Position numbers and translations under genes: made by a program | Virus record (IMG/VR): IMGVR_UViG_3300025327_000016 | Span: 1-64,000 of that record | Reading direction: 5' to 3' (one strand) | DNA length: 64,000 bases | Source of the DNA: an uncultured virus (IMG/VR IMGVR_UViG_3300025327_000016) | Lineage: Duplodnaviria; Heunggongvirae; Uroviricota; Caudoviricetes | The notes under the pieces: generated by a model | The model's input: the letters and a program-made list of their open reading frames with translations, nothing else | The model's database searches: none | What the model was told of the DNA's origin: nothing | Shown here: positions 1-46,900 of the stretch, piece after piece | Layout: each line of letters begins with the position of its first letter | Numbering within the stretch: the stretch's first letter is position 1

Positions 1-640
1 AGCATTACTAACAGCACGACGAACAGCATTACCAATAGCACCACCAACAGCATCACCAACAGTACTATCAACAACATCACTAACAACATCACTAACAGCA
101 CCACGAACAGCATTATCAACAGCATTACGAACAGCTCTACGAACAGCATCATCAACAGCTATCCCAACAGCATTAAAAACAGCACTACCAACAGCATTAT
201 CAACAGCACTACCAACAGCCCTACCAACAGCATTACCAACAGCATTAAAAACAGCACTACCAACAGCATTATCAACAGCTATCCCAACAGCACTACTAAC
301 AGCATTATCAACAGCATTACCAACAGCATTACCAACAGCATCACCAACAGTACTACTAACAGCATCATCAACAGCTATCCCAACAGCATTACCAACAGCA
401 TTACTAACAGCACGACGAACAGCATTACCAATAGCACCACCAACAGCATCACCAACAGTACTATCAACAACATCACTAACAACATCACTAACAGCACCAC
501 GAACAGCATTATCAACAGCATTATCAACAGCATTACGAACAGCTCTACGAACAGCATTATCAACAGCTATCCCAACAGCACTACTAACAGCATCATCAAC
601 AGCACTACCAACAGCACTACTAACAGCATCATCAACAGCA
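1..640. repeat. ~50 tandem copies of a 12-bp unit AACAGCNNNNNN, with a higher-order duplication (1-127 = 397-523)
   Basis: Read directly from sequence. Confidence 0.95.
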
Positions 641-708
641 CTATAATACACAATACCTAATTCGTCTGTTCCTGAACCCGTAGGCCCCTTATATGGTTCA
701 GATAGCAT
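1..708 (-). CDS. Tetrapeptide-repeat (xxAV) protein, 3' end runs off the window; not in the ORF track
   Basis: SD AAGGAGGTG 7 nt before ATG at 708; reads MLSEPYKGPTGSGTDELGIVYYSAVDDAVSSAVGSAVDDAV... with no stop to base 1. Confidence 0.8.
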   Translation of the reverse strand, partial: MLSEPYKGPTGSGTDELGIVYYSAVDDAVSSAVGSAVDDAVSSAVGIAVDNAVRRAVRNAVDNAVDNAVRGAVSDVVSDVVDSTVGDAVGGAIGNAVRRAVSNAVGNAVGIAVDDAVSSTVGDAVGNAVGNAVDNAVSSAVGIAVDNAVGSAVFNAVGNAVGRAVGSAVDNAVGSAVFNAVGIAVDDAVRRAVRNAVDNAVRGAVSDVVSDVVDSTVGDAVGGAIGNAVRRAVSNA

Positions 709-760
709 AACATTACACCTCCTTAAGATTAAAAGATAACAAAGACTAAAAGATAATAGT

Positions 761-1015
761 TTAACTATAACTTTTAATGCGAGTAATTACATCGAGAATG
801 CCCTCACTATCATGTATATGTTCAAAGATATAACTCTTAACTTCATGAGGTTGTAGCATTTTTAGAATACAATGTTCTGACGGTGATATACCTAGTCTTG
901 CGGCTTCTATTCCATGTGCCCACACTTGAAACCAGAAACGTTTAAACTGTAATCTAAAGTGCATCTCCTCAATACTTTCTCTAGCATATTTTAAGAATTG
1001 ATCATCACTAGCCAT
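761..1015 (-). CDS. Hypothetical protein
   Basis: 84 aa ORF, SD GAGGTG, part of a tightly packed - strand cluster. Confidence 0.7.
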   Translation of the reverse strand: MASDDQFLKYARESIEEMHFRLQFKRFWFQVWAHGIEAARLGISPSEHCILKMLQPHEVKSYIFEHIHDSEGILDVITRIKSYS

Positions 1016-1033
1016 TTATACACCTCTATGTTC

Positions 1034-1321
1034 TTAATTAATCTTCCAATCATGGAAGCCAAGTAAATTCTTGGCTCTATTTAAAAACTCATATTTATTT
1101 TCATCTTCTATCTTTAGATATAGTCCAACAACTAACCAGCATGCCCAATGATGAATATTATTACCAAATTCATCAATAGGTGGCATTTTTTTTACATACT
1201 CAAGAATCTTATAGATATTCGTTTTATCTTTTGCTGGCATCATAAGGCGGTTATATGTATTTATATCATATTGTTGAGCGCCTAGTGCCAATAGAAGAGC
1301 TGTATTGATTTTTAACACCAT
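1034..1321 (-). CDS. Hypothetical protein
   Basis: 95 aa ORF, SD-like GAAAGGA. Confidence 0.65.
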   Translation of the reverse strand: MVLKINTALLLALGAQQYDINTYNRLMMPAKDKTNIYKILEYVKKMPPIDEFGNNIHHWACWLVVGLYLKIEDENKYEFLNRAKNLLGFHDWKIN

Positions 1322-1353
1322 CTTTTCCTTTCATATCCATAGCGTATTGAAAC

Positions 1354-1644
1354 TTACTTACTCTTTCCCTTCCCAAGCTTATGTACTTTCACTTCGAAAT
1401 CTTTATATATTTGAAACTCCAATTGTACACCATTAGCCCATGATGGTTCGTCCTTATTGGGTGCGTTAAAACATAGTTCGGTATTTTTAACACAACTATT
1501 TAATGCACTTAAACCACCAGCAAAGACAGGTGAAAAACTAATATAGAAGTTGGTGGAATATCTGTCTTCTTCTTTGATATTAAACCAACGAAATAGTAGG
1601 GATTGAAGTTCTCCATCATGTAATCTTATATCCGTGTTAATCAC
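1354..1644 (-). CDS. Hypothetical protein
   Basis: 96 aa ORF overlapping the upstream stop. Confidence 0.65.
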   Translation of the reverse strand: MINTDIRLHDGELQSLLFRWFNIKEEDRYSTNFYISFSPVFAGGLSALNSCVKNTELCFNAPNKDEPSWANGVQLEFQIYKDFEVKVHKLGKGKSK

Positions 1645-1918
1645 TTCCCTTTCTATATCTTATTTCACAACATGGGTCGCCTATAGAATAAATATGTTCT
1701 GTAATTTTACATGACTTGCAGCGCCATAATTCATATGTTTTATTATGCTCTAAATCATGAACCTGTGCCAGCTTACGATCAAGTATCCACTGGCTACCTT
1801 CTAGCAATACTAGACCTATATGGTTGCCGTTGGAACATTCTATGGTTAATACTATATGCCCCAACTTAGTATGTTCCATCAGTAATATTGCTTCTGCCTG
1901 TTTATCAGCTGTTAACAT
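1637..1918 (-). CDS. Hypothetical protein, possible Zn-ribbon
   Basis: CSNGNH...CKSC motifs; SD GAGGA. Confidence 0.6.
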   Translation of the reverse strand: MLTADKQAEAILLMEHTKLGHIVLTIECSNGNHIGLVLLEGSQWILDRKLAQVHDLEHNKTYELWRCKSCKITEHIYSIGDPCCEIRYRKGSD

Positions 1919-1921
1919 GAT

Positions 1922-2140
1922 CTATTCCTCCTTTTTCTCTGCTTTCTCTGCCATATCTGTCTGTCTAGTGGGAGACAGTTGTTTGGCGGTCTCATACCTA
2001 CATTCTTCACAAGCACCTATATCATACTCTCCTTTCAACTTATTATCACACATAATACAAATTCCCTTAAATCCTTCATAACAATCCATACATATATTGT
2101 TAGAAAAAACCTCACCTATCGCGCAAATCTCACAAAGCAT
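1922..2140 (-). CDS. Small Cys-rich (four CxxC) Zn-binding protein
   Basis: CEIC, CMDC, CIMC, CEEC. Confidence 0.65.
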   Translation of the reverse strand: MLCEICAIGEVFSNNICMDCYEGFKGICIMCDNKLKGEYDIGACEECRYETAKQLSPTRQTDMAEKAEKKEE

Positions 2141-2143
2141 GTC

Positions 2144-2386
2144 TTATACACCACCCTTTCTTGAAACAGAACCTAATATATTTTGAATCGCTTTATACAT
2201 ACCCGCTATTATCAGTATACCTAGTACTAGAAGTACTAGGTGGGGGCAAATAATCCACCCAAACATAATACATCCCACTATTAACATAAATATTCCTATC
2301 CCTTTCCCAAGAGGATCATCTTTACCTCCTATCTTCAATATCAACCAACCCATCACTACGAATAATAAAGGTACTAACCATTTCAT
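2144..2386 (-). CDS. Small membrane protein
   Basis: Hydrophobic segments, SD AGGAGG. Confidence 0.7.
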   Translation of the reverse strand: MKWLVPLLFVVMGWLILKIGGKDDPLGKGIGIFMLIVGCIMFGWIICPHLVLLVLGILIIAGMYKAIQNILGSVSRKGGV

Positions 2387-2426
2387 GATTTAACCTCCTA
2401 TTCTTCCGTTAACAGCACCATCAACA

Positions 2427-2463
2427 GTAGAAAAATGAGACCTGATTAATAAGGGATTGAAAC
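2427..2463 (+). CRISPR. Solitary CRISPR-repeat-like unit 1 (not an array)
   Basis: GTAGAAAAATGAGACCTGATTAATAAGGGATTGAAAC, 37 bp, starts GT and ends ATTGAAAC, intergenic. Confidence 0.75.
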
Positions 2464-2468
2464 TTAAT

Positions 2469-2651
2469 TTATTCATTGATACCCTTCCCTTCTTTTTCAG
2501 AAATGTTTATAGACGAGAGAACTGGAGATATTGAAGAAGATTCAAATACTCTATCAGAGTATTCAAGAGCAATACTTTCTGCAGATGAAAAATTATTTGC
2601 TTTTACCGTAAATGTTACAGGATAAACTATTGTAACTTCATATAAATTCAT
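2469..2651 (-). CDS. Hypothetical protein (60 aa, MNLYEVTIVYP...)
   Basis: Internal ATG of the tracked 127 aa ORF avoids overlap with the upstream gene. Confidence 0.55.
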   Translation of the reverse strand: MNLYEVTIVYPVTFTVKANNFSSAESIALEYSDRVFESSSISPVLSSINISEKEGKGINE

Positions 2652-2655
2652 TGTT

Positions 2656-2877
2656 TTACCACATATCCTTTCTTTTTGTGCGCTCCTGTTCGAGCGCACC
2701 AACCACCTTATTAAACTTATCTTCGGCTGGAAGCCGAAGATGATCAAACCTTTCCTCCAACATCCCCTGTTCTTCAGGGGATAATACATACCCCTGAGCG
2801 AGCTTCTGATGGAGCTCGTGACGAACGATCTCCTCTTCGGAGACCGTTTCAAAATATCTAATTTTGCTTTTTATCAT
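2656..2877 (-). CDS. Hypothetical protein (73 aa, MIKSKIRYF...)
   Basis: SD GGAGGTG before ATG at 2877. Confidence 0.65.
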   Translation of the reverse strand: MIKSKIRYFETVSEEEIVRHELHQKLAQGYVLSPEEQGMLEERFDHLRLPAEDKFNKVVGALEQERTKRKDMW

Positions 2878-2881
2878 ACTT

Positions 2882-3259
2882 CTACACCTCCCTAAATTGA
2901 ATAAATTTAAAGATGGCGGTCTTTTCGACCGTACCATCCGTCAATATTTTCTCTACCGCCTCGCGGCGGGAGGTAGATACTACTACTTTATACCCTAACT
3001 CTTTACACATATGAGTTAAAGTATAAAATAACGATTGTTCCCCCATTACATGGAGGATTACTTGAGAGGGGGATAACCCCTTAATATCAAGGATCTCTCC
3101 TATCTGATACATCATATCCATAGCTAACTTACTAATCCCCTCCTTGTCTAAGGAGGGGTCAACTTGCGGAAACGGCATATCTAATATATCCCCTTTTACC
3201 CCTTCTCTTTGTTCTATTGACCATTTCCCATATGGGTGGTTGCTGATATTAATAAACAT
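2882..3259 (-). CDS. Csx20/Csx15-like CARF-related protein, putative cyclic-oligoadenylate ring nuclease
   Basis: Start reassigned to MFINISNHP (SD GAAAGGAAG); motifs NxSNHP..W..EQ, D.PFP.VDP, HVMGE, STS.R, F.F.QFRE recalled from CRISPR-associated Csx20-like proteins. Confidence 0.7.
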   Translation of the reverse strand: MFINISNHPYGKWSIEQREGVKGDILDMPFPQVDPSLDKEGISKLAMDMMYQIGEILDIKGLSPSQVILHVMGEQSLFYTLTHMCKELGYKVVVSTSRREAVEKILTDGTVEKTAIFKFIQFREV

Positions 3260-3453
3260 ATTTACACTTCCTTTCTTTATCCATAATATCCACCTAAACA
3301 ATACAAACTTAGGTGGTCTTACCAAGATACATAACAGGATGCTTGCACACCGTATGCAAAACACCCTGTCATCCACAGACTTATCTTCCCCACGAACAGA
3401 AAAGGGCAGGTGGTAGATATCCTACCCGCCCACTCTCATCTTCCGTAGAAAAA

Positions 3454-3490
3454 GTAGAAAAATGAGACCTGATCAGTAAGGGATTGAAAC
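3454..3490 (+). CRISPR. Solitary CRISPR-repeat-like unit 2 (not an array)
   Basis: GTAGAAAAATGAGACCTGATCAGTAAGGGATTGAAAC, 35/37 identical to unit 1, intergenic. Confidence 0.75.
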
Positions 3491-3521
3491 TTTACGCCTT
3501 CTTTCTTTTTTTTTTTGAATT

Positions 3522-3551
3522 AAAAAAAGCCGAGGGCTAATGCCCTCGGCT
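3522..3551 (-). terminator. Intrinsic terminator
   Basis: 10-bp stem AGCCGAGGGC/GCCCTCGGCT followed by a T run on the - strand. Confidence 0.75.
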
Positions 3552-3560
3552 AAATCAAGC

Positions 3561-3926
3561 CTAGAAACTAGGCTTGATTTTTCCAGGAGCCTTTTTAGGC
3601 TCCTGGAGGAGCTCACTCACGCGAGCTCCTCCGTACCGTCCAAACTGGACGGTGTAGAGTTTGAACTCTTCACCGTCCTTTATTGTAATCCACGGGGACG
3701 GGTTCCCCGTGTCCCTGGGACCAAGTCCGATCCCAGTCCAGACGCACGCATCTGGGCTGAGATCAAAGATCTCAGCCAGCTCTCCTGTAATAATTACAGG
3801 AGAGCTTACGCTCCCTTTCTCAGCATTAAATCTTTCTATTAGCTCGCCCAAAGGGCGAGCCAATAAACCCTTAGCGAGCCCGATAAGGCTCGCTTCTTTT
3901 TTCCCTTTAACTTCTATAAAGCTCAT
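3561..3926 (-). CDS. Hypothetical protein (hairpin-tiled CDS)
   Basis: 121 aa ORF, SD AAGGAGGT, terminator downstream. Confidence 0.7.
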   Translation of the reverse strand: MSFIEVKGKKEASLIGLAKGLLARPLGELIERFNAEKGSVSSPVIITGELAEIFDLSPDACVWTGIGLGPRDTGNPSPWITIKDGEEFKLYTVQFGRYGGARVSELLQEPKKAPGKIKPSF

Positions 3927-3929
3927 TTT

Positions 3930-4101
3930 TTTACCTCCTTTTGGCAGCAGCTAGATGCCTGCTGCCTTGGATATTGTAGGTGCACATGGGGCAGACAAGG
4001 AACTGAATTGTCAAGATACGCTGTTTGTCTTGACAATGTCTGCCCCATGTGCTTTGCTTTTTAAGGCAGCAGGCAGCTGCTGACTAAAAGAAAGAGGTAA
4101 A
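3930..4101 (-). promoter_or_regulatory. Long nested stem-loop whose base pairs with the SD of the 3561-3926 gene
   Basis: Nested inverted repeats 3930-3937/4094-4101, GCCTGCTGCCTT/AAGGCAGCAGGC, 3982-3997/4037-4052, 4007-4016/4028-4037. Confidence 0.6.
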
Positions 4102-4803
4102 GAGATGAGGAGAAGTAAGGGGAAGAAAGAGGCATGAGACAGAGGGAAGCTAAAGAGGGGGGCTCGAGGAGGCGAGTTGATGGTGGCACCTCCCCTCCCT
4201 CTTTTAGGTGTTGTAGCTGGAGAGCAGAGGGGGTTTAGCCCCTCTGGTCGGGACACTATTATTACAACATCAAGGTTAGTGGGGGGGAATAGTATCCTCA
4301 TGTATAGGCTATCAACTTATACTATAAGGTTAAGTTGGATAGGGAAGAGGGGCCGAAGGCCCCTGATGGGAGCACTAAGAGGTTCTTTAAGGGTTATATA
4401 TGAGGCATAAAATAACTCCCTATATAAGCCTTGAAAGAAAACCCTGGATTAAAGCCATTTGTTTTTGAGAGATGAGTACCAATAAGGTGGTTTTTAAGAA
4501 TGGCTCTACCATTGACTTGAGACTACCTCAGCTACAGGGAACGACATCTAAAGGACAGGCAAAAAATGGCTCTGCTACGTGGTCAAAAACTGGCGTGGCT
4601 ATTGGATGTGGTTTTTCAAACGGATGTTGTATTATCAACGTTGGGCGCCGAAGGCGTAGTAGATAAGGGTAGGTTGGAATAGGAATAGACAAGGGGAGCC
4701 GAAGGCTTGAGGTAAGAGGAAGTAGGGAGGGGGGTGCGAAGCACCCCTGTTGGGAGGAAAAAGGGGAGCGGTAGAGCTAAACAAGCCTCTACCGCTCCGA
4801 AGA

Positions 4804-4983
4804 CTACGAGTAATCCTCGTAGTCGTCTTCCAGGGGGCAGGCTATTACCCACCCCCAATCGTATGCACAATCAACGCATACGCCCATCTCCTGACAAGAT
4901 GTCAGGAGACCTACTTCTCCACATACAGTGCAGAAGTCTATATCATCAACTTCCACCATAGAAGTTGATGATAATATTCTCAT
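4804..4983 (-). CDS. Small Cys-rich protein (59 aa); not in the ORF track
   Basis: SD GAAAGGAGGTG; MRILSSTSMVEVDDIDFCTVCGEVGLLTSCQEMGVCVDCAYDW... Confidence 0.65.
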   Translation of the reverse strand: MRILSSTSMVEVDDIDFCTVCGEVGLLTSCQEMGVCVDCAYDWGWVIACPLEDDYEDYS

Positions 4984-4999
4984 ATTTCACCTCCTTTCT

Positions 5000-5218
5000 T
5001 TAGTTGTTTGTTGAGACGTGACTTAGATACCATATCCAGTCACATCTTATTAGGGCTCCATCATACAATCTGGGCAAATAAAGTGCCCAGATTGCTTTCA
5101 GGATACAACCCTTTATTACTTCAGGGTTGTATCCTAGATCACTAACCCATTCTGGGTTAGTGATAAACATCATTCGTGCGCTGTACTGACAGCGCACGAA
5201 CTTAAACAAGTATTCCAT
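5000..5218 (-). CDS. Hypothetical protein
   Basis: 72 aa, SD AAAGGAGG. Confidence 0.65.
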   Translation of the reverse strand: MEYLFKFVRCQYSARMMFITNPEWVSDLGYNPEVIKGCILKAIWALYLPRLYDGALIRCDWIWYLSHVSTNN

Positions 5219-5246
5219 TAATATCCCTCCTTTCTAATCTAGCAAG

Positions 5247-5450
5247 CTACCGCTTGCTGCATATATCAACAACAAACCCTGCTCCTCCTAATAGGAGGAG
5301 TACTACAAGCACTCCTCCCAACCATGGGAGCAGCACACAAGCTGCTCCCACCAACCCCACCCATAAGAGGGTGGTACCAATTAGGTTGTCCTTCTTTCGA
5401 AGGAACCAACCTAGTACTGCTATAAAAATACAAATTAACAACCTTAACAT
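5247..5450 (-). CDS. Small membrane protein, resembles 2144-2386
   Basis: Hydrophobic 67 aa, SD GAGGTG. Confidence 0.65.
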   Translation of the reverse strand: MLRLLICIFIAVLGWFLRKKDNLIGTTLLWVGLVGAACVLLPWLGGVLVVLLLLGGAGFVVDICSKR

Positions 5451-5520
5451 ATTTACTCACCTCTCTTTCTCGTGACCATTATTTAACGAGGCGGTCACTA
5501 CCTCGTAAGCTCAGTCCTAA

Positions 5521-5685
5521 CTATCCCTCCTTTCGCGCGATGTACTCATCGTACATCGCGTTGATATCCTCGTCCGTAAGAACGAGGTCTTCCGACCAGG
5601 ACTCATAGTCCTGGTCTACCTGCTGGAGGCAGCCCCAGCAAGGGGCTGCCTCCAGGTACAACTCATCAATCAGGTCCCTGATCAT
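5521..5685 (-). CDS. Small acidic protein (54 aa, MIRDLIDELY...)
   Basis: SD AAAGGAGGTG before ATG at 5685. Confidence 0.65.
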   Translation of the reverse strand: MIRDLIDELYLEAAPCWGCLQQVDQDYESWSEDLVLTDEDINAMYDEYIARKEG

Positions 5686-5849
5686 TTGCTCACCTCCTTT
5701 CGAAGGCGAACAGCTTCTGAAAGCTGCTCGCGATGATATCGCGAGCGTAACTCCCAGACATACTCTGGGAGCTTGTCCAAAAGCCCCCAGACTAACTCGG
5801 GTTCCCAACCCGAGTATCTCTTTTCGATCCAACTTTCAAAACTCATCAT
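5682..5849 (-). CDS. Hypothetical protein (MMSFESWIEKRY...)
   Basis: ATGA overlap with the next gene; SD-like GTAGGT. Confidence 0.55.
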   Translation of the reverse strand: MMSFESWIEKRYSGWEPELVWGLLDKLPEYVWELRSRYHREQLSEAVRLRKEVSK

Positions 5850-5906
5850 ATAATACCTACTTTCTGCCGCTGTTAAGCGGCGTAATGTCACCCACTTGGT
5901 GGGTGC

Positions 5907-5946
5907 AAAAAAGGGGAAGGGAGAGCTTGTAAGCTCTCCCTTCCCC
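5907..5946 (-). terminator. Intrinsic terminator
   Basis: 15-bp stem GGGGAAGGGAGAGCT/AGCTCTCCCTTCCCC plus T6 on the - strand. Confidence 0.75.
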
Positions 5947-5956
5947 CCAACTTACT

Positions 5957-6193
5957 TTACTCAGAGACCTCGGCGTAGAATGCGCCGAGATCCTCCTTCC
6001 CCTTTATTACAACATTAACGCACTGGCCGAGGTTACTGTGAATGTAAAAACTCGTGCATTCAATCTTTTCAGCTGCGCACGCTGCGCAGCTGGACGGGTA
6101 GGCATAGCCTACCCATCCAGTGAACCCCGCGGGCGGGTTCTGACACCATTCCATGATGGCGTCGTAAAGCTCTCTACCTTTACAAATACTCAT
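5957..6193 (-). CDS. Hypothetical protein
   Basis: 78 aa, SD GAAAGGAG. Confidence 0.65.
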   Translation of the reverse strand: MSICKGRELYDAIMEWCQNPPAGFTGWVGYAYPSSCAACAAEKIECTSFYIHSNLGQCVNVVIKGKEDLGAFYAEVSE

Positions 6194-6313
6194 ATTATAC
6201 TCCTTTCATCTACAGCCTGCCTCACGGTCAGGTCTTACATAGACCTCATCATCGGTGTCGCAAGCCACCTCCCACCTACACCCCGTGGTTGGGGTTAAGC
6301 CCGCAACCATAGA

Positions 6314-6388
6314 TTACTCTATGGTTGCGAACTCAGCGTTCAGTATCGCCCAACAATAGGCGACACAAATCCAAAGTTCAAATATCAT
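6314..6388 (-). CDS. Putative 24 aa hydrophobic peptide MIFELWICVAYCWAILNAEFATIE
   Basis: Strong SD GAAAGGAGGTG with the same leader as the 4983 gene. Confidence 0.4.
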   Translation of the reverse strand: MIFELWICVAYCWAILNAEFATIE

Positions 6389-6718
6389 ATATTTCACCTC
6401 CTTTCAGCCACATAGTTCACAGGGGGGGGTGGGGCACCAAACGATAAATCCCCTGTGATATTATCTGCATTACCACCCACACACACATACACTCACCCTA
6501 ACGGGGTTACCTGCTCGCACCACAAGCAAATAAATGAGCCTAGAACACATCGTAGGGGAAGGGGTGGGTACTGGAAGCTAGGGGTAATTACCCCTAGCTT
6601 TAAGAAGCCTTCTAAAATTTTTAGTGGAACCTTCTCTTATTTAGCTTTCGCCAGGGCTTTAACAGCTTTTATATCTAACAAGAGGTATATATCATGAATA
6701 TTCCAAGAAATAGTAACC

Positions 6719-7009
6719 TTGCTTGAAAGATGGTGTTGTTATAACGGACAACTTATTCTCAATGAATCTATTGACGATGGTTTCCCCGAATTAACAAAAG
6801 AGATATGGATGTGCAGAGGAAACATTAGATTAGCTAAGATAGAGTATCCCCCAATATACAACAGGGAAGGTATTGCCTTCCCCCGTAACTTAAGTGGTGA
6901 TCAAATACTGGCTTCGATCCAAAAGGTATATTACCCTAACAAGTTAGGGTGGGGAGATATAACAACTGATGTCCAAGGGAGTACACCTGATGATAGTACC
7001 AAACATTAG
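6719..7009 (+). CDS. Hypothetical protein, possibly frameshifted from ATG at 6694
   Basis: ORF; the SD-supported ATG at 6694 is one base out of frame. Confidence 0.45.
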   Translation: MLERWCCYNGQLILNESIDDGFPELTKEIWMCRGNIRLAKIEYPPIYNREGIAFPRNLSGDQILASIQKVYYPNKLGWGDITTDVQGSTPDDSTKH

Positions 7010-7229
7010 AAGTAATAAATATAATGATTTACCTAATAAGGTATCGCCGTTCCTAACGGCGGTGGATAAGGTATTTATTACCGAAGGTAGATTTGAAGTA
7101 GGTAGCATAAATAATCCTATTAGGCACATCTTTGATACCAGTAATGATGCTGTAGCTTACGCTGAGAAATTTCAACCAGGTACGATGACTATTCTAGATC
7201 GATGGACAAATAGTTCTTGGATAGTATAA
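6969..7229 (+). CDS. Hypothetical protein
   Basis: 86 aa ORF coupled to neighbours. Confidence 0.55.
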   Translation: MSKGVHLMIVPNIRSNKYNDLPNKVSPFLTAVDKVFITEGRFEVGSINNPIRHIFDTSNDAVAYAEKFQPGTMTILDRWTNSSWIV

Positions 7230-7483
7230 CCTATGTATGTATTATCATCTCAGATGGGCCTAAAACACATGAGTTAGAGGTGACAGGTATCTTAGACCAA
7301 CTTGGAGTAACTTCTGCGCTATATGACCAATTAGAGCTGTTTCCTGAGGCATATACAGGAGACCACATCCTAGACGATTCGATGATCGGAAAATGGAAAG
7401 CAGAAAGAGGTATTAGATCTATACCCCTTAAGAAAGGATCTAGCAAACAAACTATTGCAGATAACATTACTGAGTTAAGCTGA
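7217..7483 (+). CDS. Hypothetical protein reading into a PLKKG-type remnant
   Basis: 88 aa ORF, TTG start. Confidence 0.45.
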   Translation: MDSITYVCIIISDGPKTHELEVTGILDQLGVTSALYDQLELFPEAYTGDHILDDSMIGKWKAERGIRSIPLKKGSSKQTIADNITELS

Positions 7484-7613
7484 GTTAATTAGATCAGGTA
7501 AAAGCAAAGTTCAAGCGGTAGCCATGGATAAAGCTGGTAAGGGTAATAAGCGTAAGCGGGAAGAACATATTCCTCAAGTTAATACCTCACCCATGGATTT
7601 ATGGCATTCCTGA
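7421..7613 (+). pseudogene. Disrupted small basic phage protein (MPLKKG..K..I..NI.ELI.SG....QAVA type)
   Basis: ATA in place of ATG after AAAGAGG; 10-bp imperfect duplication 7471-7490 shifts the frame. Confidence 0.6.
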
Positions 7614-7617
7614 TCAC

Positions 7618-7648
7618 TTGACAAAAAGATCAATATATGTTATATATT
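7618..7648 (+). promoter_or_regulatory. Sigma70/sigmaA-like promoter upstream of the packaging operon
   Basis: TTGACA, 17 bp, TATATA with a TG extension (TATATT at 19 bp). Confidence 0.5.
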
Positions 7649-7875
7649 AATTCTTTTATATAATATATATAACATCACTGTCAGTAATATTATAATACAG
7701 AGAACTACTAAAAGTAGTTCTCTTATAAGATATTACTGTATGTAATATTACATACAGAGATCTCTGTCAGTAATAAGCAATCCATTAAGGTTGCGGAAAA
7801 ACCATATACAGTATATAATTAGTTAGCACCTAATAACCTATGGATCTAATGCATCAATTAAACGGAGATATTGTA

Positions 7876-8544
7876 ATGCGAAGAAATTATCGTAAGCCAA
7901 ATATAGAATCATTAGTTAAGAATAATAGGGAGCTTCCAGCTCCTCCTCCTGGATGGAAATTTCCTCGAGAGTGGAATTTAGATCAACGTAAGGTTGATGC
8001 TATAACAGTAGAACTTCAACAACGACGTAGTACTCATGGTATGTTTGCTAATGTACCCATGTTATGTAATGGCGAGCAATGTCCTTTTGCTCTTATATGT
8101 GGTGCGTGGCAGGCACAAGAGGCACACATAGGTGACAGGTGTGTGCCTGAGATAGCATTGGTTATGACCAATACAGATAGGTATCTCCGTGAGTTTGGTA
8201 TAGATCCAAATAAGGACGACCACTTTGCCGACTTCACGTTAGTGAAGGAGTTAGTAGCTATAGAGGTTATGATCGAGCGATGCGAGAAGAGATTATCTCT
8301 TGAATATGAAGTAGTGGATGTTCCTGTTCTAGCTACGAAGAACAGTGAGGTTTACACTAAGAAAGAAGTTAATGCATCACTAGATATTCGCGATAAGCAT
8401 ATGCGCCGTAGACATGAAATCCTTAGGCTATTACAAGCTACGAGAGCTGATAAGAAGCAACTATCAGGTAATACAGGTGCTGAGGTAGCTGATCGGTTGC
8501 TTACCCTTGATGCTGAAGTTACTGATATTCGAAAGGATGATTAG
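7876..8544 (+). CDS. Putative terminase small subunit / Zn-binding packaging protein
   Basis: First gene of the late operon near terL; Cys cluster and helical C-terminus; SD GGAG favours the 7876 start. Confidence 0.5.
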   Translation: MRRNYRKPNIESLVKNNRELPAPPPGWKFPREWNLDQRKVDAITVELQQRRSTHGMFANVPMLCNGEQCPFALICGAWQAQEAHIGDRCVPEIALVMTNTDRYLREFGIDPNKDDHFADFTLVKELVAIEVMIERCEKRLSLEYEVVDVPVLATKNSEVYTKKEVNASLDIRDKHMRRRHEILRLLQATRADKKQLSGNTGAEVADRLLTLDAEVTDIRKDD

Positions 8545-8546
8545 GC

Positions 8547-8963
8547 ATGCCTAATTTTGTTGGTAGTATATGGAATAATATGACGAGATATGCCCCTTCA
8601 GCTTATGCTGCTATCAAACAAGGAGCAGGGATGTTTGGTGCAGGATTTGGTGGTATGAGAAGTGGTTGGGCTGGTTCGCCTAGTCTTATGGGTAATCTTG
8701 CAAGTCCATCTTTTTTAGGTAGAGTTGGTGGTTCAATGAGTGGTTTTGGTGGTGGTATAGCTGAAGCATGGGGTGGGATGTCTACTGCTGGCAAAGTAGC
8801 AGGTGTAGGTATGGGCTTAGGTGGAGGTTGGATGGGAACTAATCTTATTGCTCGAGGATTAGGTGCTACCGTAGGTACCTTAGGAGACTTAGGTGGAGTA
8901 GCTTTTGGTGGTCCCGCAGAGAACTTTCAAAGAGGTAGGTCAAGAGGACCAATAGGATTATAG
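8547..8963 (+). CDS. Gly-rich protein, possible membrane-active or virion protein
   Basis: Very Gly-rich, amphipathic. Confidence 0.65.
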   Translation: MPNFVGSIWNNMTRYAPSAYAAIKQGAGMFGAGFGGMRSGWAGSPSLMGNLASPSFLGRVGGSMSGFGGGIAEAWGGMSTAGKVAGVGMGLGGGWMGTNLIARGLGATVGTLGDLGGVAFGGPAENFQRGRSRGPIGL

Positions 8964-8977
8964 GGCTAAAATAACAA

Positions 8978-9370
8978 ATGCCAAGTTTATTGGGTTCATT
9001 ATTAAAAGGTGTATGGAGCACTACTAAGTTTGGGGCTCGTACAGGATGGGGTATTACTAGGGGTGTAACAGGAGCTGTGTTTAACAGGGGAACCCTACAA
9101 ACAGGTATGGGTTTAGCTCAAGGAGCTTGGAGCTTAGGTAAATTTGCCCATAAGTATCAAGCACCTATTGGTTTTGGAATAGCAGCAGGAGCTTTTGCTT
9201 TTGGTGCTATGAACTATCCTAGTGTGGATCCTAAACAGTACGCCGAGGTGCGAGGACATTCTCCTATGCAACGTTTCCAAGCAAGTGCTCAAGGAGATCT
9301 TGTTTTTGGTTTAAATAAAACACCAGATGTTAATATATCTCCAATGGCGGCTGCTTATATGTTTCTTTAG
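8978..9370 (+). CDS. Gly-rich protein with a hydrophobic segment
   Basis: ORF in operon. Confidence 0.65.
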   Translation: MPSLLGSLLKGVWSTTKFGARTGWGITRGVTGAVFNRGTLQTGMGLAQGAWSLGKFAHKYQAPIGFGIAAGAFAFGAMNYPSVDPKQYAEVRGHSPMQRFQASAQGDLVFGLNKTPDVNISPMAAAYMFL

Positions 9371-9873: not shown

Positions 9874-11589
9874 ATGGGTATAGATATAACTCGTTTTACT
9901 CCAGAACAACGCAGTAGGTATATAGAAGTTCTTAAGACCTTTCCTCTCTTCGCAAAAGAATTTTTCGATAAAACTCTTCGTGATTGGCAACAAACAGTTG
10001 TTGCAACAAATGCTAAACGTTTTGCGTTACGCGTAGCACGTCGTGGTGGTAAAACCGAATTAGTATGTATGATGGTTTTATGGTTATGTTTTACTAATGG
10101 TAAGGTCATAGATCCTACCCGCAAGCAACGATACAAAGTTATTGTGATGGCTCCACTAGAAACCCATCTTAATGATATTTATCAGAATATGCTAACACTC
10201 ATAAATACCTCTAAAGATTTTCAAGAGAGTATAGAGAAGCCCGCTAAAGCACCTGCATTTTTGCGTTTTAAAAACGGTGCTGTTATACAATTCTTAACAG
10301 CAGGTACCAAGTCGGGAATGGCAGCCATGGGTATTCGTGGTAAGTGGGGTGATTTAATATGGGTAGAAGAAGCAGACTATTGTACGGATGATGACATGAC
10401 ATCAGCTTTAGCTATCTTGGGTCAATCAGATGACATTAGGTTTATAATGACATCTACTCCATCAGGTAAAAGAGGTATATACTACGAGACATGTGTTGAT
10501 CCAGAACCCAGAGGCTTCAAATCATTTCACTATAATTGCTGGGAAGCAATACCAGATTGGAATGAAGAACGTGATAGGCAGATACGTATGCTCATTGGGC
10601 CAGTTAGGTATGAACATGAACAACTAGCTGATTTTGGTTCTGAATCATTTGCGGTATTTAAGAAAGAAAAAATAGATACTGCTAAAAATCGCGATACACC
10701 ATGGTATACTCATTCTCCCAAATCTCATCCTAATTATGGGTATCTTATGTCTAAGCTTTATAGCAAAGAACATCCTATCGTAATAGGAGTAGATTGGGAT
10801 AAGTATCATGCTGCTACTCAGATAGTTGTTGTGCAGTTTGAAAGATATGATGATAAAGACTATTATATGCGCGTAATAGCAAGACATGAAATACCAATAG
10901 GAGAATATACCCTACATAACGCTACTAAGAAAATAGTTATGCTTAATGATTTCTATCAACCAGATTATATCTATTGTGATCGTGGTTATGGAGAAGGTCA
11001 GATAGAAAACTTAAAAGTAGTTGGTTTGGAGAATCCAGAAACCAAACTTCACGATAAAGTAATTGGTGTACATTTTGGACAGTCAGTAGATATTCTAGAT
11101 CCGCATACTAGGGTAAGATCATCAACGCCAATCAAACCACTAATGGTAAATAGATTAACTCAGATGTTTGATGACGAAGTACTTATACTAAGTCCTCATG
11201 ATCACTTCATGACCCTAGAGTTAAACGAATATCGAGTTAAGCGTATGAGCCAAAATGGACAACCCATTTTCTCTTCTAAGAACGAACATGCCATAGACGC
11301 TCTTATGTTAGCAGTATATGGTATTACCGAACACTTTTTAAATATGGGCAAGGTAGAATCTTATGCTGAGATGCAGCCTATTAGCAATATCTTAAAGCGC
11401 GTACCTGAAAACAAAACCTCACCATTACAAAAACGCAACACCAATATAGATTATGAGCCCCCTCCGCCTGGGTTTATACCATCCAATCAGTATGGATTGC
11501 GAGGAGGGGGATTCGACAGCTTTAATCCTACAGTATCTAGATTTGGTGGTTCAGGTATAAGACGTAGAAGTTTTACGCGAGGTAGCTAA
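9874..11589 (+). CDS. terL: Terminase large subunit
   Basis: Walker A RVARRGGKT, Walker B LIWVEEAD, coupling motif TSTP, nuclease IGVDWD and HAIDAL. Confidence 0.92.
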   Translation: MGIDITRFTPEQRSRYIEVLKTFPLFAKEFFDKTLRDWQQTVVATNAKRFALRVARRGGKTELVCMMVLWLCFTNGKVIDPTRKQRYKVIVMAPLETHLNDIYQNMLTLINTSKDFQESIEKPAKAPAFLRFKNGAVIQFLTAGTKSGMAAMGIRGKWGDLIWVEEADYCTDDDMTSALAILGQSDDIRFIMTSTPSGKRGIYYETCVDPEPRGFKSFHYNCWEAIPDWNEERDRQIRMLIGPVRYEHEQLADFGSESFAVFKKEKIDTAKNRDTPWYTHSPKSHPNYGYLMSKLYSKEHPIVIGVDWDKYHAATQIVVVQFERYDDKDYYMRVIARHEIPIGEYTLHNATKKIVMLNDFYQPDYIYCDRGYGEGQIENLKVVGLENPETKLHDKVIGVHFGQSVDILDPHTRVRSSTPIKPLMVNRLTQMFDDEVLILSPHDHFMTLELNEYRVKRMSQNGQPIFSSKNEHAIDALMLAVYGITEHFLNMGKVESYAEMQPISNILKRVPENKTSPLQKRNTNIDYEPPPPGFIPSNQYGLRGGGFDSFNPTVSRFGGSGIRRRSFTRGS

Positions 11590-43963: not shown

Positions 43964-46900
43964 ATGGCATTTGGACCCTTTCCAATTAATCACGGAGAAG
44001 AGAGCGCAAGAGAATCTCTTCACATAGCTAGGTCAGTTAGTAATCCTGCGTGGAGCGAGCATCTTCACAACCAAACCACTAGATCTAGTAATCTTATACT
44101 AGATCCATTTACAGGAGAGAATATTCTTATTGCTCCTCTTACTAATCAGACCTACACAACACACAAAGAAATCCAACGAGCACTATCTACCTCATTAAGC
44201 ACACCATCCTATTTTGGACAGTATCTCCATACACCACATAATGTAAGCATTAGATCTAAGATCAGTAAAATGATTAGTTTGGGTCATATAGGTGGTACAG
44301 GTGGTCCACAATTACCAACTATTAGATTTACCGCTTCTGCTTATCACGAAGGATTAACTGGTCTTCCTGTAAAGACATCACTACCAACTATTATACCTCC
44401 TTCTGGTTCTTGGCAAACACAGCTAGAAAACATGACTAGAACTGAAAAATGGAAGCTATGGCAAGACGTAACAGGTGCAATGCCTAGTGGAGGATATACA
44501 CTAGATCAAATTAAACAACTTCAGGCAAATCTTTTTCACCGAGAATTATCTGTTCAGGAATTCTTGCAAGCATATCAACAAATAGAAAAGACATCTACCA
44601 AAGATGTAGTCATAAAAACTAAGCAATTACTTAAGGCTTCTTTTGGTGCTAATATATCCTTACCTAATACTATCAAAGATATATATACTATGGAACAACA
44701 TATCTTTGAGAAAATCTTACCCTCTTTTGGAGAAGAAGTACAGGAAACTCTTAAGGGGTACCGTACAGTAGTGACTGGTTCTAGTAAGGCGCGTATGGCC
44801 TGGGAGATACACGAGCGTCCTCTTAAGATGATGGGTTCGTGGTTAGCTCAGTTTACATCTTCTCCTAAGGTAGATCGTAACTTATTGGCTCAAACAAGTA
44901 ATATAATAGAAGCTGGTGCAAAAAGAGATTTAACACAAGAATTGGCTTCTGCTAATGTGATGTCTCGTGAAAAGATGGAGGCAATGGATGTCTTACGACC
45001 CCTTTCTCAACGAGAAAGGGAAATACAATCTGGTATGGGAACAGTTTTTCAGTTTAGTCCTAAGTCCATATCTCCTCTTGCAGAAACAGCCCTACCCACA
45101 CAACTATCAGAAGCTGATGTATTTGGAACAGCATTCGAGTCCTACATGCGTCAGACACACCCACAAGCAATATATTCCTATCAGAAATTTAGACACTCTG
45201 AAGACATATTAAAACTAGTTAAGGGTCATACTGCTGAGGTTGCGGAGTTTGATGAATTTCGTAAAGTAATACAGAAAATTGCAACTCGTGCTGCTACGCA
45301 AGCACCAGGATATAGATCTAAAGCATATCTCAAGCTAGCAAAATCTACTACATTAGATTTTGCTCAACAAATGGCAGCATGGCAGGATTATATAAGATCT
45401 GGTATGTCAGAAATAGAAACAGTATCTGAGTTTGGTGCTAAAGCATCGCAAGCATCTAAAGAGTTAGCCAACATAGAGCAACTAATACAACAACATCGCG
45501 AAGCTGGTGAGCTATATGGCACACCTAAAATGCAAGCTCTTTTTGAACAGCGTGAAGATATAGCTAAGCAATTTGTAGGGCATGAGAGAATATTAGCTAG
45601 TGGTAAATCACCCAAAGACATTGTAAATTTACCCAGTCAACCTACAAACCCTCTTGAATCCTATGCTAAACCTTTTGTTGGGCCAATGCCTCAACAAGTA
45701 TTACAGCCTAAGTCAGTTCAATACAAGCGTATTACTACAGCTAAGGGGTTACAAGAATTCCTTAAGAGTCTACCATCATCTGGTCATATTGCATTAGATA
45801 CAGAAACAACAGCATTTTCTGAAGCAATAGAGAGAGTTAGATTGCTTCAGCTTTCAGCTGAGGGCGGACCTGTTGGTATTGTAGATCTCCTTAAACTACC
45901 TAAAAAGGGTAGATCTATTTTAACTGAGTTCCTCGCTAGTTCTAGACCTAAAATAATACAAAATGCTCCATTTGATATCAAAGCTTTATTAGGCGAAGGA
46001 TATAAAATCGGTGGGCAGATATACGATCCTATGGTGGCAGAGCAGGTTCTTAGTCAAACTAAGTATGGTAAATCTAACCTAGGATATCTTGCGTCTAAAT
46101 ATTTAAACATTTCCTTGCCTAAAGAAGCACAAAAATCTAAGTGGGGTGGTAGGCTATCAAAACAACGATACCAGTATGCAGCCAGAGACGTAGCCGTACT
46201 ACATGATATAATGAGTGCTCAGTCTGCAGCATTTGAACAGGTGGGTATAGAGCAATACAATATAGCTGCGAAGCAGATGACTAGTATACAGCAAAGAGCT
46301 AGAGAAAAGTTTATTACAACAACACATCTAAAATCTACAATAAAATCCACAACACCAATAATACCAACACCAACAGTAGCACCATCAGCACGACGAACAG
46401 CACCATCAACAGCATTACCAACAGCATTATCAACAGCACTACGAACAGCATTACCAACAGCACCATCAACAGCACCAATAATACCAACAACACCAATAAC
46501 AACAACACCAATAACAGCAATACCAACAGGTCCTCAAGCTACTGCAATACCTTCACCGTCTAGAGCCCAGAATATTATGGACGTTCTTACGAGTGAGCCA
46601 GGTCGTAGAAAGATCTTATCGGCAGGTGCTTCACTTGAAGCAGGTCCATGGGCAGCCATACCTGAGAAGTCTGCAGAACTTATGCGCCAGAATCAAGAGA
46701 AGCTATATGCTCTTAGTCGTGGAGTAGGATACTATGCTAAAGTAAAACCCCTTGGGGAAACTGGAGGTATGCATGAGTTAATCCTACAGTCTATGGAAAC
46801 CCACGGAGCTAAGTTTAAAATGGTAGGTACAGCAGAAGAGCTAAATGAGAAACTGCGTTCTGCTCAAGCCCAGGCATTTGTAGAAGGTATAGCTCCTGAA

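Follow-up and report, generated by a model that had tools for sequence, protein, structure and literature searches.

A hairpin-tiled orphan gene within an over-folded zone of an uncultured double-stranded DNA phage

The window analysed here comprises 64,000 nucleotides of a 99.8-kb dsDNA viral contig that derives from an uncultured phage of soil and groundwater. At positions 3561–3926 on the minus strand it carries an orphan gene of 366 nt (121 aa), probably expressed early, whose coding sequence is tiled with short hairpins: compared to synonymous-codon shuffles that preserve the protein, the ORF folds with z = -8.3. The original prediction, that this is a gene built largely from consecutive hairpins, is true of the ORF, but the whole zone from 2.65 to 6.3 kb is built in the same way and the property does not belong to the ORF alone.

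Coding signature and hairpins of the 121-aa gene

Sequence searches with the 121-aa protein returned relatives of 57% and 37% identity, one of which has its DNA on a syntenic piece of a related phage (L015), where the orthologue occupies L015:2198-2575. In a codon alignment the two genes share 53% amino acid identity, with a pS of 0.82 and a pN of 0.32; identity at the three codon positions is 0.62, 0.72 and 0.35, third positions being the least conserved, and seven neighbouring gene pairs behave alike. Indels between the two are in frame, and a Shine-Dalgarno sequence is present in both phages. On this comparison ORF 3561–3926 is a true protein-coding gene and, we infer, a translated one; absence of translation had been named at the outset as a finding that would overturn the claim, and the coding signature against L015 speaks the other way. 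That the ORF is untranslated, the element being a structured ncRNA or a DNA element, is hardly credible: the lack of a family or fold match for the protein and of RNA-level expression evidence would suit such a reading, but the contrast between pS and pN, the in-frame indels, the paired Shine-Dalgarno sequences, a third relative at 37% identity, a folded protein model (pLDDT 71.6, from four sequences) and the absence of any Rfam family at threshold (15 matches at E ≤ 1 in a scan of 1–9000, none reaching the gathering threshold) stand against it.

The protein is predicted to be small, with an alpha/beta fold. It belongs to no family in PHROGs, Pfam or NCBIfam and has no usable Atlas match; the best fold match has a Z of 4.3 in pdb_via_wide and none reaches E ≤ 0.001 in BFVD or PDB, which does not imply a new fold. 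The same DNA sequence recurs in other assemblies, possibly of one sampling campaign, at 99.9% identity and is therefore not a single-assembly error. Two protein-only records, P0001 and P0003 (93% and 90%), which differ mainly over the hairpin at 3647–3678, were set aside as probable assembly artefacts; for P0017 and P0018 no DNA was found among viral contigs.

All nine stems of the original prediction are perfect Watson-Crick inverted repeats, of 13 (3552–3580), 11 (3582–3607), 9 (3606–3631; 10 at 3605–3632), 8 (3635–3653), 8 (3691–3711), 10 (3755–3777), 14 (3778–3806), 8 (3842–3860) and 8 pairs (3873–3894). Together they account for 204 of the 366 nt of the ORF, 66% of which is paired in the local fold. 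Every entry in that list stood, but the list omits hairpins at 3647–3678, 3715–3736, 3739–3754 and 3943–3966. Folding of the segment 3500–3960 yields a z of -15.0 as RNA and -14.5 as DNA, reached by none of 100 dinucleotide shuffles. The hairpins are intragenic and are not copies of one another; stems are mostly perfect Watson-Crick, and the loop is 3 nt long in 11 of 45.

Read along the minus strand, the series begins with a leader hairpin (3943–3966), its sequence mostly retained in L015, just 5' of the Shine-Dalgarno sequence AGGAGGT (3933–3939), which had been predicted and lies 6 nt before the ATG. This stretch is open: the probability of being unpaired is 0.62 about the start against 0.33 in the gene body, and the longest unpaired run from leader hairpin to terminator (19 nt) falls at the ribosome-binding site. 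Within the coding sequence follow an 8-bp hairpin absent from L015 (3873–3894); a hairpin at 3838–3866, in which the 8 perfect pairs of 3842–3860 are lengthened by one G-U pair of the mRNA strand and which is shifted in L015; the 14-bp hairpin at 3778–3806, whose inner 9 pairs L015 retains in register, 5 through double change, the peptide being different; and a 10-bp hairpin, partially retained (3755–3777). The stretch 3715–3754 holds two more (3715–3736 and 3739–3754) that depend on G-U pairs of the mRNA strand. An 8-bp hairpin at 3691–3711 has a different hairpin in its place in L015, while 3635–3678 accommodates two alternatives with one arm in common, a perfect one (3635–3653) and one with a single A-A mismatch (3647–3678). 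Two abutting hairpins (3605–3632 and 3582–3607, spanning 3582–3632) are absent from L015. The 13-bp hairpin at 3552–3580 has the stop codon in its 3' arm and is succeeded by the element at 3521–3551 that had been called a terminator: a 10-bp terminator-like hairpin (3528–3551) followed by seven T, of which L015 keeps the hairpin without the T tract.

To assess conservation, 19 window stems in five genes were projected onto L015, a single orthologous phage without phylogenetic control. This left 62 pairs unchanged; 22 of 38 double changes were compensatory (p = 0.0016 against one third), and a further 14 pairs had changed to G-U. Synonymous-site covariation, proposed as a check on the hairpins, is hinted at by this compensatory excess, but 62 of 76 single changes break a pair and the comparison extends to one orthologue. 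Conservation of the stems, the lack of which was to count against the prediction, is likewise partial: 3778–3806 is an example of retention, but several stems are absent or shifted in L015, among them those of the gene's 3' third, and the orthologue folds at a z of -2.9 only. Partial retention combined with a compensatory excess indicates that it is the density of pairing that is selected, individual stems turning over between relatives. Together with the coding signature and the z of the ORF, the compensatory changes bear out the proposal that protein and nucleic-acid structure are encoded together, here across a block of presumed early genes.

The over-folded zone and its surroundings

The zone extends over 2656–6330 on the minus strand and is made up of leftward, putatively early genes. 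Nine of nine leftward genes tested (2656–6193) have a z of -4 or below against synonymous shuffles (-4.3 to -10.4), compared to 0 of 15 outside, where seven leftward genes beyond the zone and eight rightward genes range from -2.1 to +1.3. GC3 stands at 0.51 in the zone; leftward genes further out have 0.28 and three late genes 0.25. Over-folding is confined to ~4 kb of the contig and is not genome-wide.

Genes left of ~6.4 kb are small, leftward orphans. The large terminase gene (terL; 9874–11589) has its closest cultured counterparts in Moorella phage MTATph1 (36%) and Bacillus phage 0305phi8-36 (30%), and the leftward genes of 0305phi8-36 that match by synteny sit in its annotated left terminal repeat. 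Solely from this synteny we infer that the zone is early in timing, or a terminal repeat. Among the variants listed for contigs of four runs, none falls inside the zone; promoter-like sites are at chance level (15 versus 13.1) and five sources gave no tRNA or tmRNA.

Upstream of the 121-aa gene lies a non-coding leader (3970–4800) that folds less than the genes. Although the synonymous sites of the two phages are saturated, it has ~30-nt blocks identical to L015 (~4293–4332 and 4497–4530; L015 1470–2190), candidates for an origin, a promoter set or a small RNA, with no Rfam or tRNA match. Hairpins with C-GNA-G triloops cluster on the leader template strand (4354, 4649, 4700 and 4737, plus strand), where 4 of the 13 plus-strand cases in 99.8 kb are found; L015 has six (561–2087). 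Loops of the C-GNA-G type are very stable in DNA and are reminiscent of N4-type hairpin promoters. An operator-like palindrome whose 9-bp arms contain TTGACA recurs, in both phages, in the leader and 5' of another leftward gene (window 4008–4040, L003 10106–10138, L015 5506–5534). An AT-rich palindrome cluster at window 7632–7767, just 5' of a probable small terminase gene (7840–8544), resembles one at L015 1–200 and is a possible pac or origin site. A 12-nt tandem repeat at window 1–650 (minus strand) corresponds to a low-complexity alanine/valine-rich protein, with a similar stretch at ~46350–46530, and a PTH2 peptidyl-tRNA hydrolase gene among the leftward genes of L015 (4619–4972) is missing at the corresponding place in the window.

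One member of the zone, at 2882–3259 on the minus strand (z = -4.3), encodes a putative ring nuclease of Csx20/MJ1673 type. The product matches NF040559 (Csx20) at E 4e-10, with 40 bits against a cut-off of 70 and over its C-terminal half only, and is assigned to PF27247, the MJ1673 family; no cultured phage matched. L015 retains the gene (74%), barely folded (z = -0.8). A profile for the Csx20-like protein identified 26 viral loci, from which three copies of this phage, four near-duplicates and one fragment were dropped; the remaining 18, among which are a pair at 76% and a trio at 94–96%, represent ~15 lineages, nine of them folded. Over three shuffle runs, 11, 11 and 10 of the 18 genes had a z of -3 or below, leaving 7–8 that are not over-folded. 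Equivalent values were seen in 2 of 35 terL segments and in 1 of 30 host csx20 genes (viral versus host, Fisher p = 6e-5), the latter being 30 of 43 matches in 40 of 401 genomes, of a different Csx20 subfamily and one phylum. The canonical NF040559 was used for the host control because the phage-subfamily profile A9 found nothing in 301 genomes. Among neighbours of the viral genes, 32 of 103 have a z of -3 or below; comparison of the genes with their neighbours gives p = 0.09, and the neighbours are themselves more folded than terL (p = 7e-5), so that these loci do not tell 'early gene' apart from 'anti-type III gene'. At two loci (L137 and L139) the Csx20-like gene is folded and no tested neighbour reaches -3. 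A Pfam scan found no cas gene among 74 of the 103 neighbours.

Flanking the Csx20-like gene of the window, downstream of the 121-aa gene, are two solitary CRISPR-repeat units on the plus strand, each intergenic, 37 nt long and 1027 bp apart: unit 1 at 3454–3490 and unit 2, with two differences from it, at 2427–2463. Comparison with arrays shows 6 differences in 37 nt from the array repeat of L016. Arrays were matched in MAGs, and in one (G001) such an array follows a RAMP operon with a best match to type III-D, a call that combines RAMP matches under the cut-off with a weak Cas10 palm match; the Cas10 models TIGR02578 and TIGR02577 gave nothing over cut-off in G001–G003. Unit 1 reads in the direction of the host type III-D operon and would therefore be antisense to early mRNA, and both units face against the flanking, presumed early genes. 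L015 is without repeat units, and the three spacers tested matched the phage over 12 nt at most.

A survey of 74 terL loci, 31 of them with 10 kb upstream, revealed a comparable zone in one of the 31 (L077, part of genome G004; terL 36%) and a partial one in L090. The remaining loci have at most 5 inverted repeats per 2 kb, compared to 23 in the window; there is no such zone in two cultured reference phages, and the annotated terminal repeat of 0305phi8-36 contains one such inverted repeat in 6.5 kb. In G004 the zone occupies the same position, extends over 15 kb and has a GC content of 51–56% against ~40%; 12 of 12 further zone genes have z between -4.0 and -10.5, and 5 of 6 beyond the edge lie above -2. 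By tblastx, the early genes of G004 show no relation to the window's. The G004 record, 69% complete, has no match to the Csx20-like profile, and the 20 kb scanned contain no CRISPR-repeat match. Stems of G004 paralogues are kept mostly by identity, compensatory changes (8 of 28) showing no excess. A single G004 protein family has members with z of -5.7 and -4.9 inside the zone and of -1.9, -1.6, -1.4 and, in one case, -5.0 outside; being folded inside and mostly not outside, it shows that position matters.

In G004, moreover, an intergenic hairpin whose loop reads UAAC gave 15 matches (L077 1–3900 and G004:C1 41738–49047); it is part of a repeated unit that ends in a Shine-Dalgarno sequence and lies between small paralogous genes; a UAAC loop closes the hairpin 3' of the orthologue in L015 as well. 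The G004 zone ends at a pair of large orphans of 522 and 647 aa, a DCDGD motif being present in one (L117 12398–15851); a possible identity as a two-barrel RNA polymerase was not confirmed (model pLDDT 36.6). Long insertions that look intein-like by eye occur in a Clp-type ATPase and in terL of relatives (L010 5515–7938, L077 9860–12385).

The folding molecule and the possible cause of over-folding

Stems, coding signature, regional extent, strand bias, open starts and the Csx20-like association were all computed directly. Two of these concern the molecule that folds. In coding hairpins of the window and L077 pooled, internal mismatches on the mRNA strand are G-U/G-T in 21 cases and A-C in 5; the ratio is 7:1 in the window (p = 0.04) and 14:4 in L077 (p = 0.025), compared to 30:29 and 43:39 in codon shuffles, one interval per set being out of frame, which affects only its shuffle. 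Similarly, 16 of 16 genes have a more open structure over the 30 nt at the start than in the body, a count in which two L077 starts were placed 3 nt early and which should be read in the knowledge that open starts are common in any gene. Wobble bias and open starts point to the mRNA. The wobble bias names a strand, not RNA as opposed to DNA, G-T also favouring the single DNA strand; a single-stranded coding DNA strand is still a candidate because G-T stabilises DNA too and both strands fold almost equally well. In terms of accessibility, the median cost of opening 30 nt of the ORF is 16.6 kcal/mol, against 10.3 in shuffles, and every gene of the zone retains an open 30-nt window (minima of 1.8–9.9 kcal/mol, mostly shuffle-like).

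The explanation that we prefer, tentatively and with a little less than even confidence, is that codon choice has armoured the mRNAs with hairpins against guide pairing and the RNases of type III CRISPR; it supposes that the messages fold in vivo, are made early and are protected, and that the defence is correctly identified. The ORF would be a translated early gene of a 0305phi8-36-like myophage, located in a promoter-proximal leftward block that, judging from position, is probably the first to be expressed after infection. Selection on synonymous codons and on some amino-acid choices would tile the mRNAs with short local hairpins and leave ribosome-binding sites open, and stems would turn over between relatives because pairing density, and not any one stem, would count. 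The likeliest purpose would be to counter RNA-targeting immunity, type III CRISPR above all, by passive means: single-strand RNases activated by cOA (Csm6/Csx1) would cut paired RNA poorly, a guide RNA would have difficulty in annealing to it, and early messages, the ring nuclease's included, might thus survive until translated. Because an open window remains in the ORF, resistance to collateral RNases would fit better than full blocking of guides.

Csm6 leaves dsRNA mostly uncut (PMC4748810); in Thermus, protection against phiFa came only from spacers that target early terminal-repeat genes (PMC7515739); Csx20 degrades cA4 and associates with Csx1 (10.1101/2024.09.24.614671); type III spacer acquisition peaks just past early promoters (PMC13575424); and target accessibility matters for Cas13b (10.1101/092577). 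For Csm an effect of target structure is suggested (PMC10497410), and the accessible parts of PMC11026444 and 10.1101/2024.08.01.606276 do not address target structure. Within the window, armour is supported by the presence of the Csx20-like gene and two solitary repeats in the zone or at its edge; the coding signature, the restriction of over-folding to the zone, the second zone in G004, the wobble bias, the open starts, the raised cost of opening and the excess of folded viral Csx20-like genes over terL and host csx20 also favour it. Against it are G004, with a larger zone and no ring nuclease detected in its incomplete record, and L015, which has a barely folded Csx20-like gene, a weakly folded orthologue and no repeats. 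The viral Csx20-like genes that are not over-folded, the shift in their neighbours, the different subfamily of the host control, the open windows and the G004 paralogues likewise weigh against it.

The main rival is that structure stabilises the earliest mRNAs in general, or aids read-through, with no relation to CRISPR and in the service of fast early protein synthesis; this is an unlikely cause, though one to be taken seriously. Structure would then counter RNases, whether those of housekeeping decay (E/Y/J), those of toxins or one used by the phage for shut-off, or else the loading of Rho on poorly coupled transcripts. Every mRNA-level observation fits this equally; the G004 zone without a detected ring nuclease, the position-dependent folding of the G004 family and the shift in the neighbours of Csx20-like genes relative to terL favour it. 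However, a clear zone in only 1 of 31 terL relatives, and in neither cultured reference, suits a host-specific pressure, and at some Csx20-like loci folding is gene-specific.

It is also conceivable, although improbable, that structure acts at the level of DNA, hiding a transiently single-stranded coding strand from ssDNA sensors, nucleases and spacer acquisition; single-strandedness could arise during ejection, duplication of a terminal repeat by strand displacement, or in the transcription bubble. The mostly perfect Watson-Crick stems, the frequent 3-nt loops, good folding as DNA, the triloop hairpins clustered on the leader template strand, the placement of the zone where 0305phi8-36 has its annotated left terminal repeat, and the acquisition peak after early promoters (PMC13575424) are all compatible with this. 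Yet ribosome-binding regions escape the folding in all 16 genes, folding in other phages stops at the level of the gene, the 0305phi8-36 repeat is almost devoid of such inverted repeats, and a terminal repeat in the present phage is suggested by synteny only. A neutral by-product, in which template-switch repair perfects quasi-palindromes in dispensable, often single-stranded genes, would account for near-perfect, in many cases lineage-specific stems and for the single changes that break pairs in L015, but is very improbable given the compensatory excess, the doubled GC3, the spared starts and the contrast between host and viral csx20.

Significance and relation to known systems

Type III CRISPR is tolerant of point mutations, and its protection is strongest where the targets are early phage transcripts; for this reason the known escape routes are deletions or anti-CRISPR proteins. 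If the preferred explanation of RNA armour is true, then mRNA structure is a third route that needs no extra gene, and one that explains how a ring nuclease can be translated in a cell full of activated RNase. The wider proposition, that phages write passive immunity into codon choice by tiling first-wave messages with hairpins against collateral RNases and guides, is one we advance with somewhat greater reserve. If true, over-folding would be a sequence-only marker for anti-type III genes, the 121-aa orphan being a candidate, and phage orphans could be screened for anti-defence genes without recourse to homology. Should the rival explanation of mRNA stabilisation hold instead, the zone still shows that a dsDNA phage can alter third-position GC and its choice of amino acids across kilobases for the sake of RNA structure.

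Positive-strand RNA viruses are known for over-folded coding RNA, and ssRNA phages for folded genomes. The open literature searched showed no report of over-folded early coding sequence in a dsDNA phage as counter-defence. A close parallel is the GORS of RNA viruses, in which, as here, coding sequences are over-folded by way of synonymous sites, density outweighs the single stem and the proposed role is evasion of host RNA sensing or decay. Unlike GORS, the present case concerns a dsDNA phage, an early-gene block with a sharp edge, short local hairpins and open ribosome-binding sites. In encoding a putative Csx20/MJ1673-like protein the zone resembles phages with ring-nuclease Acrs (AcrIII-1/Crn2, Csx20); those are active enzymes, whereas the messages would carry the hairpins as a passive feature in cis. 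Csx20 occurs in 5 of 28,114 phage genomes, and cA4 cleavage is shown for cellular Csx20, according to 10.1101/2024.09.24.614671.

Two further systems share part of the arrangement. Like Racr RNA anti-CRISPRs (PMC10651486), the window has two intergenic solitary repeats that resemble host arrays and lie beside a candidate acr gene; unlike Racr, the repeats are antisense to the local genes and type III-associated, the term 'type III' being absent from the main text of that paper. The PeSL cassettes of T4-type phages (PMC2839356) likewise place stem-loops among small early genes, and the repeated intergenic hairpin of G004 is akin to them. PeSLs, however, are intergenic, repeated promoter-terminator units, whereas the hairpins described here are intragenic and non-repeated.
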